DNA from: a virus
Virus record (IMG/VR): IMGVR_UViG_3300045988_094428
Span: 1 to 64,000 of that record
Direction: 5' to 3' (one strand)
DNA length: 64,000 bases
The notes beneath the pieces were generated by a model that worked only from the letters and a program-made list of their open reading frames with translations, made no database searches and had not been told where the DNA came from. A program made the position numbers and the translations under genes. Numbering within the stretch: position 1 is the first letter of the stretch; every line of letters starts with the position of its first letter. Shown here piece after piece: positions 13 through 2,211 of this stretch.

Positions 13-2211
13 ATGATTATTAACGGTAAAAGAGCTTTAGCGTATATTACTAAGATTGATGACATTTCTCCTCTGGATGGATATGATAGGGTAGAATACG
101 CTAGAGTAGGGGGATGGGGAGTCATTGTTTCTAAGGCTGACCAGTTTAAGCCCGGAGATAAGTGTGTTTATTTTGAGGTTGACTCTAAGGTAAATGCAAA
201 CGACCCTCGGTTCGCTTTTATGGCAAAGCGTGACTATAAGGTTAAGTGTATTAAGATGTGCAAGGTATACTCTCAGGGATTGATTATGCCTGTGAGTGTA
301 TTTGACGAATTAAAGGATGCAAATATCGGTGATGATGTTACCGATATTTTGAAGGTTCGTTATTCTGTCGAGGAGGACAACGCCCGTAAGTCGGATGTGG
401 TTGAAAAGAAGCTGACTTTCTTCGAGCGTATCAAGAATTTCTTTACTGGCAAGAAGGTAACTAATCCTCGTAAGTTCCCTACTAAGTTTGAATACGTAAA
501 GAAGTCGGATGAAGAGCGTTGCTTAATTGGCGATACTAAGATTCTTACCAACATTGGCAATATTAGAATTGCCGATATTGTAAATAAGAATCTCGACGTT
601 TTGGTGGCATCTGTGAACGCAAATGGCGAAATTGAGTGGAAACCTATTGTTGGTAGGCAGAAACTTGCATCAGAGCCTAAGATTGAAATTGGTTATCCTT
701 ATCGCGCTGGCTGTGCAAAGCTAAATCATGTCGTATGTTCTTACGACCACAAGTTTATGACTCAGGATGGTTATAAGACCGCATACGAACTCTCTATGTC
801 TGATAAACTTTTCATGTATACGAACTGTTATTCAGATGACGTTATTCCTTTTATTTATGGTTCGATTCTTGGTGATGCAGGAGTTTACCATGATGCTAGG
901 GCAGAAGGTGACGGTATAAAGATTAACTTTACGCAGGGTGAAGCACAGCGCGAATATCTTAATTTTAAGATGGAGTATCTTGGTTGCGAAGATTCGCCTG
1001 TCTATCCTATGAAGAGCGGATATGCAGATACCACTGTTTATCGTTTTTGCTTGAATATGGATGGCAATATCAGCAATCATGTTCTTGAGGATTGCTGGAA
1101 CGGGACTGAGGTAGTCTTGACTAATAAGATGTTTGAAAAGATTACTCCGCTGTCGCTTGCTATTTGGTATCTTGATGATGGTACTTTGATTAAGAATAAT
1201 CATGACGGTGGACGTGCAAAGATTTCTACCTGTGCTTTCTCTCTTGAGGAAAACAAGATGCTCGTTGATATGCTGAATGATAAGTTCGGTATTGTCGCTA
1301 CCATTATCAACGATAAGGGTTACTATACCTTGGCTCTTGATACCGAGAATACGGATAAATTTATGGAAATTATCTGCGGTTATGTGCCTAGCTGTATGCG
1401 GTATAAGGTGACTAATAAATTCGCTAATGCTGAATTTGTTTTGGACGATGTTGTTTACAAGAAGTCTTATAGAACTATCGCAGTTCCTGTAAAGAGCGTG
1501 AATAACTATAACGGTAAGTTCGTAAACGGTAGTTTGTATGACATTACTGTTGCAGATAATCACAATTTCTTTGCTAATGGTGTTCTGACCCACAACTGCG
1601 AGAATATGCCGTTTATTTTGAAGGACAAAGAGCCTTGGATTAAGACTCAGAAGATTGATGGCACTTCTTCTACGTATATCATGGAAAAGAAGCCGTTTGG
1701 TCGTTGGGAGTATTATGTATGCTCTCGTAATGTACGTCAGCTTGACCGTAAGCAGTTCACTTGGCACAACAAGGGTGGAAATTCTGAATCTAATGTGTAC
1801 TGGGATATGAACGACAAGTATCATATTGACGAATTTTTGAAGCGTTACATTAAGGATAATAACTTGAAGTATGCGGCATTGCAGGGAGAAACCGCTGGCC
1901 CTAATCTTCAGGGTAATCCTCACAAGTATGGTGAAGTACGTTTCTTTGGTTACAATCTGATTCGTTCTGACGTTGGGCGTATCAATTCTTTGGATGCAAA
2001 GAAGATTTGTAATGCCAATGGAATTGATTGGGTTCCTATCGCAGATGAGCATTATATCTTGCCTGATGATATGGAAACTCTAAAGCTGGATGCTGATGGT
2101 GAGTGTATTGTTGGTACTGGCTTGCGTGAAGGTTGGGTTTATCGTAGCCTTGACGGTCAGCGCTCTTTTAAGAATGTTAGCCGTAAGTATATGATGAAGC
2201 ATGACGAGTAA
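13..2211 (+). CDS. ATP-dependent RNA/DNA ligase family protein. Nucleotidyltransferase motif I KIDGTS follows the intein; N-extein ~169 aa plus C-extein ~205 aa. Interrupted in frame by an intein.
   Basis: KxDG motif (KTQKIDGTSS). Intein block A (CLIGDTKIL) and block G (VLTHN|C). Two LAGLIDADG-like motifs (ILGDAGVY, IWYLDDGT) inside the insert. Confidence 0.55.
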   Translation: MIINGKRALAYITKIDDISPLDGYDRVEYARVGGWGVIVSKADQFKPGDKCVYFEVDSKVNANDPRFAFMAKRDYKVKCIKMCKVYSQGLIMPVSVFDELKDANIGDDVTDILKVRYSVEEDNARKSDVVEKKLTFFERIKNFFTGKKVTNPRKFPTKFEYVKKSDEERCLIGDTKILTNIGNIRIADIVNKNLDVLVASVNANGEIEWKPIVGRQKLASEPKIEIGYPYRAGCAKLNHVVCSYDHKFMTQDGYKTAYELSMSDKLFMYTNCYSDDVIPFIYGSILGDAGVYHDARAEGDGIKINFTQGEAQREYLNFKMEYLGCEDSPVYPMKSGYADTTVYRFCLNMDGNISNHVLEDCWNGTEVVLTNKMFEKITPLSLAIWYLDDGTLIKNNHDGGRAKISTCAFSLEENKMLVDMLNDKFGIVATIINDKGYYTLALDTENTDKFMEIICGYVPSCMRYKVTNKFANAEFVLDDVVYKKSYRTIAVPVKSVNNYNGKFVNGSLYDITVADNHNFFANGVLTHNCENMPFILKDKEPWIKTQKIDGTSSTYIMEKKPFGRWEYYVCSRNVRQLDRKQFTWHNKGGNSESNVYWDMNDKYHIDEFLKRYIKDNNLKYAALQGETAGPNLQGNPHKYGEVRFFGYNLIRSDVGRINSLDAKKICNANGIDWVPIADEHYILPDDMETLKLDADGECIVGTGLREGWVYRSLDGQRSFKNVSRKYMMKHDE
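520..1596 (+). mobile_element. Intein (~359 aa) with LAGLIDADG homing-endonuclease domain inside the ligase gene
   Basis: Starts at Cys codon 520-522 (C-LIGDT); ends His-Asn 1591-1596 followed by Cys 1597-1599; internal LAGLIDADG motifs. Confidence 0.6.

Follow-up and report, generated by a model that had tools for sequence, protein, structure and literature searches.

The window examined here is a 64,000-nt stretch of virus DNA (positions 1 to 64,000 of the IMG/VR record IMGVR_UViG_3300045988_094428), and by ORF reading it opens with one continuous open reading frame (ORF) of 732 codons on the plus strand (nt 13-2211), which was interpreted as an RNA ligase gene interrupted by an intein. An insert of 359 codons (codons 170-528; nt 520-1596, 1077 nt) lies in frame within this gene, begins with CLIGDTKIL, ends with GVLTHN and is followed by Cys as residue 529 (TGC, nt 1597-1599). 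The C-terminal part of the ligase (C-extein) begins with CENMPFILKDKEPWIKTQ, and the lysine of ligase motif I is its 19th residue (Lys547 of the precursor, nt 1651-1653). The G+C content is 39.0% in the insert, 38.8% in the window and 40-41% in the exteins. An identical 732-aa protein is already on record in JGI/ENA metagenomes, on a contig of 115,452 bp, where it is filed as 'hypothetical protein'.

With high confidence, the insert is regarded as a canonical class 1 intein that carries an I-SceI-type LAGLIDADG homing endonuclease and resides in an Rnl5-kind ligase of an uncultured, tRNA-rich phage of about 115 kb. The intein is probably active in splicing and probably also mobile by homing. 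The insert had been noticed earlier from the letters of the DNA (hereafter the original prediction), and its existence is confirmed: a 359-codon insert at 520-1596, Cys first, His-Asn last and followed by Cys, was described exactly, and the two LAGLIDADG motifs assigned to it are present at nt 850-882 and nt 1150-1182. Excision was also said to join the N-terminal part of the ligase (N-extein) directly to KIDGTS, but 18 residues intervene before the motif I lysine; likewise, the 169-aa N-terminal module placed before motif I is correct as the distance to the splice site, while the distance to the lysine is 187 aa. The features of the gene are as follows, with intein residues numbered from Cys1 and all other residues by the precursor.

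13..2211, plus strand: precursor, Rnl5-like ATP-dependent RNA ligase split by the intein (732 aa, 83.8 kDa)
13..519, plus strand: N-extein, aa 1-169, ending KSDEER; PHA02142-type OB domain and linker (PF21189; alignment with NgrRnl 5COT)
37-294, plus strand: PHA02142-type OB domain, aa 9-94 (Pfam PF21189, E=6.6e-18)
520..1596, plus strand: intein, class 1 (Cys1 ... His-Asn), 359 aa, 40.4 kDa (profiles, AlphaFold2 model, Foldseek, empty allele)
520..828, plus strand: N-terminal part of the HINT domain (homologue conservation, TIGR01445, strands E7-E103 in the model)
520-558, plus strand: block A CLIGDTKILTNIG, in the N-terminal HINT part
718-759, plus strand: block B KLNHVVCSYDHKFM with the invariant His77, in the N-terminal HINT part
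829..1419, plus strand: I-SceI-like LAGLIDADG homing endonuclease domain (PF03161, phmmer, Foldseek)
850-882, plus strand: LAGLIDADG motif 1, FIYGSILGDAG, with Asp119 (SILGD119AG)
1150-1182, plus strand: LAGLIDADG motif 2, LSLAIWYLDDG, with Asp219/Asp220 (WYLD219D220G)
1465..1596, plus strand: C-terminal part of the HINT domain (TIGR01443 intein_Cterm, E=1.1e-7; D341, H348, N349 and N359 invariant)
1531-1578, plus strand: block F SLYDITVADNHNFFAN with Asp341 and His348, in the C-terminal HINT part
1579-1596, plus strand: block G, GVLTHN, with His358-Asn359, in the C-terminal HINT part
1597..2211, plus strand: C-extein, nucleotidyltransferase domain, 204 aa (PF09414, E=5.5e-11; NgrRnl motif alignment)
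1597..1599, plus strand: +1 Cys codon (TGC), C-extein nucleophile; Val (GTT) in the empty allele
1651-1662, plus strand: motif I, KIDG, with Lys547 (NgrRnl alignment)
within 1879-1899, plus strand: motif III, QGE (NgrRnl alignment)
within 2122-2142, plus strand: motif IV, REG (NgrRnl alignment)
2164-2181, plus strand: motif V, SFKNVS (NgrRnl alignment)

An ORF of 406 codons on the minus strand (832-2052), which overlies the intein and the C-extein, is without a Pfam match and is most likely spurious; the plus frame is taken as the coding one because the ratio of nonsynonymous to synonymous divergence (omega) is about 0.05 in that frame. Nucleotides 1-2300 had no blastn match among 50,697 phage records, and relatives of the gene were obtained only via protein searches and metagenome contigs.

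Splicing and endonuclease domains of the intein

Profile searches recognized both ends of a protein-splicing domain in the insert. The Pfam family Intein_splicing was matched above its gathering score (E=5.6e-9), and in NCBIfam the model TIGR01443 (intein_Cterm, cutoff 15.6 bits) passed on the precursor as well as on the excised insert with 31.9-35.7 bits, while TIGR01445 (intein_Nterm, cutoff 24.5 bits) passed on the excised insert (24.9) and fell just short on the full precursor (23.5). Partial NCBIfam matches of the insert to many intein-containing proteins were obtained as well. Conservation was judged over 64-85 homologous inteins (alignments of 85 and 64), among which Cys1 (TGC, nt 520-522), His77, Asp341, His348, Asn349 and Asn359 are invariant; His358 is conserved in at least 90% of the homologues and the +1 residue, Cys529, in at least 90% of the occupied alleles. 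In block B, Cys73 (at least 90%) and Asp76 are conserved in the family as well. Because position 4 of block F is Asp rather than Cys, and residue 1 is Cys, the intein belongs to class 1.

The fold agrees with the profiles. An AlphaFold2 model of the intein on the homologue alignment reached a pLDDT of 94.5 and a pTM of 0.90, and Foldseek matched it in the PDB to whole endonuclease-bearing inteins, namely TliVMA, PI-PfuI, PhoVMA and PI-SceI (E 7e-14 to 1e-8). The two ends of the model together resemble the mini-inteins Mtu RecA, Npu DnaE and Ssp DnaB, with a root-mean-square deviation (rmsd) of about 2 A over about 100 residues. The original prediction had made the intein call depend on intein blocks in profile searches, and these blocks were found by profiles and by fold.

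Between the two HINT parts lies a nuclease of the I-SceI type. LAGLIDADG_2 (PF03161) was found above its gathering score on the precursor (E=7e-25, aa 280-450) and over aa 111-281 of the intein (E=1.6e-25; 88-90 bits against a cutoff of 25), and the insert also matches a LAGLIDADG homing endonuclease family among the PHROGs. Gly114, Gly118, Asp219 and Gly221 are invariant in 64 homologues, with Asp119 and Asp220 conserved in at least 90%. By sequence, the closest match to the nuclease domain is I-SceI (phmmer 1.3e-6); by structure, Foldseek placed the middle domain on I-SceI and I-WcaI (TM 0.70-0.72, rmsd 3.2-3.4 A, E 2e-12), matches through which the pseudo-dimeric alpha-beta-beta-alpha-beta-beta-alpha fold of this nuclease class can be recognized.

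The empty allele and the interrupted ligase

A natural empty allele on a syntenic phage contig was decisive for the intein call. Searching with the conceptually spliced product (373 aa, 43.4 kDa) retrieved two proteins, P0121 and P0122, which are each exactly 373 aa long, match the prediction at 97% and 93% identity, and read DEER-V-ENMPF where the window reads DEER-[intein]-C-ENMPF. Contig L004, which encodes P0121, has the downstream gene order of the window: products of 75, 122, 268, 337 and 320 aa, followed by an adenylosuccinate-synthetase-like gene, an AAA_33 kinase and a PIN gene. At the DNA level, the L004 gene is 91.9% identical to the spliced window gene in a gapless alignment. The only coding difference near the junction is the +1 codon, GTT in L004 and TGC in the window, and within 15 nt of the junction there is one further mismatch, which is synonymous (Asp166, GAT against GAC). 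Since the alignment is gapless, the element is exactly the 1077 nt given above and carries its own nucleophile codon.

Occupied and empty alleles thus occur in syntenic phages: the window and contigs L005 and L006 are occupied and L004 is empty. Grouped into clusters of 90% identity, the occupied alleles have 33 members and the empty alleles 118. The +1 residue in 120 empty alleles is Val in 100, Ile in 10, Cys in eight and Ala in one.

On profile and model grounds, the host is a divergent ATP-dependent RNA ligase of the Rnl5 (DraRnl/NgrRnl) kind. The spliced 373 aa matched TIGR02306 (RNA_lig_DRB0094, the DraRnl family) in one stretch over positions 2-341 of 341, whereas the precursor matched it in two pieces; PHROG 968 (RNA ligase) covered the whole spliced length (5e-63), and the sole phmmer match in the PDB, the RNA ligase of Naegleria gruberi (NgrRnl, 3.4e-28), spanned both halves. 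A fold search with the modelled natural uninterrupted allele (pLDDT 81.5) retrieved NgrRnl at about 5e-24, followed by T4 Rnl2 (8.5e-8), Rnl3 (about 1e-6) and DNA ligases (about 1e-4 or weaker). Counterparts of NgrRnl Arg4, Asp53, Arg149, Lys170 (KIDG), Glu227 (QGE), Glu312 (REG) and Lys326 (SFK) are all present. An N-terminal OB-like domain precedes the nucleotidyltransferase domain, and the ligase stops about 10 aa past motif V, with no C-terminal OB domain. The two extein halves, on whose unity the earlier call also hung, therefore align as one ligase by TIGR02306, PHROG 968, NgrRnl and the 373-aa allele, and the suggestion of a DraRnl-type ligase was borne out by the PF21189 OB module with its nucleotidyltransferase domain and by the preference for NgrRnl over Rnl2. 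NgrRnl and DraRnl share with the window ligase the N-terminal OB plus nucleotidyltransferase architecture and motifs I, III, IV and V, but identity is about 27%, the interdomain linker of the window ligase is longer, and neither contains an intein.

The intein site, here called site a, falls within the ATP-binding site. In the alignment with NgrRnl 5COT, DEER/CENM lies over DQER/VQNL (the slash marks the site), and the -1 residue Arg169 is the counterpart of NgrRnl Arg149, given a one-residue offset of the PDB chain. In NgrRnl, Arg149 contacts the ATP gamma-phosphate, its Ala mutant retains 15% of nick-sealing activity with a distorted ATP site, and the ATP site is also lined by two other residues of that segment, Thr145 and Asp146 (PMC7261155). 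Ser165 and Asp166 occupy the positions of these two residues here. Site a directly follows Arg169 and precedes the motif I lysine by 18 residues; since the intein parts this active-site segment from the lysine nucleophile, the precursor would be expected to be inactive. Inteins typically sit at active sites.

Spread, mobility and alternative explanations

The intein is common in public metagenomes and is mostly mis-annotated there. The breaks in the 120 best full-length matches were located with a hidden Markov model built from the 120 empty alleles: about 100 of these relatives hold an insert at site a, and about 13 hold one only at a second site, site b, immediately after KxDG of motif I. 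Six relatives of about 1110-1120 aa (P0002-P0005, P0007 and P0035) are doubly occupied, after ...DEER and after KxDG, with two LAGLIDADG inteins just 22 extein residues apart. A few others have mini-inteins at site a, which across relatives holds full-length, mini (about 146-167 aa) and empty forms. Full-length identity between the inteins of site a and those of site b, which are paralogues, is 32-35%. An exhaustive search with the intein alone against 1.84 billion cluster representatives returned 3927 relatives at E<=1e-3, 56 of them at E<=1e-30. Among the best 150 intein relatives (representatives of 50%-identity clusters), 47 reside in the Rnl5-like ligase family; hosts were scanned for 57 others, of which 16 are other PF09414 RNA ligases and the remainder RecD2- or PIF1-type helicases, clamp-loader subunits, RecA, portal, UDG and RecT proteins.

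Close ligase relatives are filed plainly as 'RNA ligase family protein', and intein-bearing RNA ligases are already contained in GenBank phage records. RNA ligase (IPR021122) has also been listed as a new intein host in actinobacteriophages (bioRxiv 10.1101/2025.01.02.630785). The searchable literature yielded no description of site a, no description of either site a or site b for gut phages, and nothing relevant on an intein-containing RNA ligase or on an intein with Rnl5; site a is therefore apparently undescribed there. The claim that inteins in RNA ligases are uncommon thus holds for the searchable literature, but not for the sequence databases, given the proportions above.

The element represents a familiar class, the homing inteins, and is ordinary within it. 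With TliVMA, PI-PfuI and PI-SceI, its top Foldseek matches (E 7e-14 to 8e-10), it shares a HINT domain split by a LAGLIDADG endonuclease and the Cys1 ... His-Asn / +1 Cys chemistry, but sequence identity is just 12-17%, its endonuclease is of the I-SceI / PF03161 type instead of the PF14528 type usual for inteins, its host is a phage RNA ligase unlike theirs, and at 359 aa it is more compact than PI-PfuI and PI-SceI, whose solved chains have 427-454 residues. I-SceI is the best structure and sequence match of the nuclease domain (TM 0.72, rmsd 3.2 A over about 200 columns), with both acidic motif residues aligned; the mitochondrial I-SceI is free-standing and encoded by a group I intron, whereas the window nuclease is nested inside a protein-splicing domain.

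Among phages, the RNA ligase of cluster J mycobacteriophages (Bobby gp147) is likewise a PF09414-type host of a LAGLIDADG intein, but there the intein lies at site b after KLHG, has Ser at +1 and is about 23% identical over aa 55-359. Pseudaeromonas phage KLEP7 gp164 ('intein-containing RNA ligase') is also an ATP-dependent phage RNA ligase, and its intein, of the same broad family, shows 26% identity along the full length. That ligase looks to be of another subfamily, as its motif I is KIHGTN, which we take to be Rnl2-like. The KLEP7 intein follows GEWAG, presumably motif III, with Ser at +1. The closest inteins among annotated phage records, at about 27% identity over 359 aa, are those of the T5-like phages smaug (Salmonella), Gostya9 and SelmaRatti (Escherichia), whose host protein is a DNA polymerase.

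The following course of events is proposed. Translation would give an 83.8-kDa precursor with Arg169 set 359 residues apart from the rest of the active site, a separation that would prevent self-adenylylation. Cys1 would undergo an N-S acyl shift, the +1 Cys would attack the resulting thioester, and Asn359 would cyclise, aided by His358, His348 and Asp341, releasing the intein (40.4 kDa) and leaving a ligase of 43.4 kDa joined as ...DEER-C-ENMPF.... Once free, the intein would act as a site-specific endonuclease on intein-free alleles, with a target around GAAGAGCGT/GTTGAGAATATGCC, and upon co-infection, repair from the occupied copy would bring in both the intein and its Cys codon. Most likely, the ligase would seal broken tRNA or other RNA together with the neighbouring polynucleotide kinase (PNK)/HD phosphatase, the RlaP-type nucleotidyltransferase, the CCA-adding enzyme and the 13 phage tRNAs.

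When the window is compared with L005 and L006, two occupied relatives, omega is 0.047 in the 3' third of the intein, 0.047 in the N-extein and 0.022 in the C-extein; the intein, with the C-terminal part of the nuclease and blocks F and G, is therefore under purifying selection as strong as that on the ligase. In the same comparison, the first 708 nt of the intein (its 5' part) and about 40 nt of upstream extein are nearly identical (synonymous divergence, dS, of 0.007), and gene positions 466-1034 show zero mismatch. Mobility is supported because occupied and empty alleles coexist, the nuclease residues are conserved, and the family is spread over several sites and hosts.

Several points weigh against parts of this interpretation. 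The zero-mismatch tract was considered as a mark of recent homing and rejected, as equal tracts occur elsewhere in these mosaic genomes; identity between the relatives is a patchwork of 41-100% along the flanking 8.7 kb, and because mosaicism is general there, the tract is not specific proof of homing. In block B (TxxH) the Thr position is variable in the family, with Ser74 in this intein. Moreover, the TIGR02306 score of the ligase is 77.8 bits against an equivalog cutoff of 151.15, so the ligase is a divergent relative and not an equivalog, and it may act on another substrate than DraRnl does. The role in tRNA/RNA repair is likely, and is read from the neighbouring genes.

A splicing intein that is no longer mobile is the first alternative to be weighed: its endonuclease would be inactive or too weak, and the distribution would reflect phage recombination with occasional precise loss. 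The strong mosaicism just described would suit it, endonuclease-free mini-inteins at the same site indicate that loss of the endonuclease does occur, and the eight empty alleles with Cys at +1, out of 120, could be footprints of intein loss. We nevertheless consider it unlikely, as more than 60 diverged homologues retain Asp119, Asp219/220 and the LAGLIDADG glycines with little or no variation, the endonuclease-containing 3' part evolves with an omega of about 0.05, and the presence of the family at several sites and in many host proteins indicates continuing mobility.

The position of the intein also invites regulatory explanations. A redox- or substrate-gated timer that acts on the ligase after translation, and whose endonuclease would in addition exclude the RNA-repair region of co-infecting intein-free relatives and drag the flanking repair genes along, seems improbable to us. 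A plain conditional switch, in which a Cys1/Cys+1 disulfide or an absent substrate, for instance, would restrain splicing so that the ligase becomes active only in particular conditions during infection, is judged very improbable. It draws on the split of the ATP-binding site (Arg169 from Lys547), by which the precursor should be inactive, on the fact that both nucleophiles are cysteines, and on the further conserved Cys73 in block B; yet nothing specific for regulation was found, insertion into active sites is a general rule for inteins that is explained by endonucleases targeting conserved DNA, and the alleles of the lineage are mostly intein-free (118 against 33 cluster members), which shows the intein to be dispensable.

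Finally, a decayed, non-splicing HINT/LAGLIDADG insertion with a dead ligase, or an in-frame group I intron ORF, deserves almost no credence; nothing in favour of it was found, and against it the reading frame is uninterrupted with all splicing residues intact, the exteins of occupied alleles are under strong purifying selection (omega 0.02-0.05), and the insert boundaries match intein blocks A and G, not intron features. No RNA family was found in nt 1-2300 at Rfam gathering scores, with the targeted E-value scan not run there; the probable group I intron elsewhere in the window was detected solely by that kind of scan, with two matches just below the gathering score.

Reading the gene as an interrupted ligase has consequences for annotation, as the 'hypothetical protein' is predicted to yield two products, an Rnl5-like ligase of 373 aa and a free homing endonuclease. 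The catalogue of intein sites gains the well-populated site a and the paralogous neighbouring site b after KxDG. In addition, one gene family holds occupied, mini-intein, doubly occupied and empty alleles, a natural series of homing-cycle stages that may serve as a test system, and a compact intein with an I-SceI-type nuclease could yield a new splicing tool or meganuclease. The understanding of inteins as such is unchanged by this finding.

The surrounding phage genome

The window is phage DNA with nearly all genes on one strand, and a dense set of RNA-repair and tRNA genes occupies 2862-20250 and 51569-53035. Thirteen tRNA genes lie at 14.6-20.2 kb, and Rfam adds a possible fourteenth at 17138-17209. 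Because of these neighbouring genes, tRNA/RNA repair is the likely job of the ligase; in relatives, a DNA ligase and a PTH2 peptidyl-tRNA hydrolase are encoded upstream of it. The protein genes concerned are the following.

2862-3668: RlaP-type nucleotidyltransferase
7134-8039: polynucleotide kinase with HD domain
11468-12967: TROVE/Ro-like DUF2828-vWA protein
13026-14558: SPFH/flotillin protein
51569-53035: CCA-adding enzyme

The Ro-like protein beside the tRNA genes suggests a Y-RNA-like partner, for which Rfam gave no match at gathering scores.

Other genes of the window are also discontinuous. A PIN-PhoH gene (8089-10402) is split inside its Walker A motif (GTYGSG/KS) by a 1108-nt insert at 8776-9883, which is probably a mobile group I intron. 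Rfam group I intron matches lie at 8730-9001 (43.1 bits) and 9702-9870 (42 bits), against a gathering score of 50; a LAGLIDADG endonuclease ORF occupies 9010-9822, the last base of exon 1 is T, and that of the insert is G. In L005 and L006 the PhoH protein is intact at 401 aa, and the exons are 97% identical to those of the window. The DNA polymerase gene (PHROG 405, 28076-32621) is present in two ORFs, 28076-29734 (profile positions 43-600) and 31086-32621 (603-1022), with an HNH/homing-endonuclease ORF (30060-31076) between them. Rfam found no group I intron in this gap, so it may be a split gene with a free-standing endonuclease, or the intron may have been missed by the models.

The adenylosuccinate-synthetase-like gene downstream of the ligase (5796-7121) has as its best PHROG the '2-aminooxy adenylosuccinate synthetase' family, which was read as PurZ-like, and on this label a 2-aminoadenine (Z) genome is possible. 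The PDB matches of its product are all named adenylosuccinate synthetase, with none labelled PurZ. In L005 this gene is broken into two ORFs.

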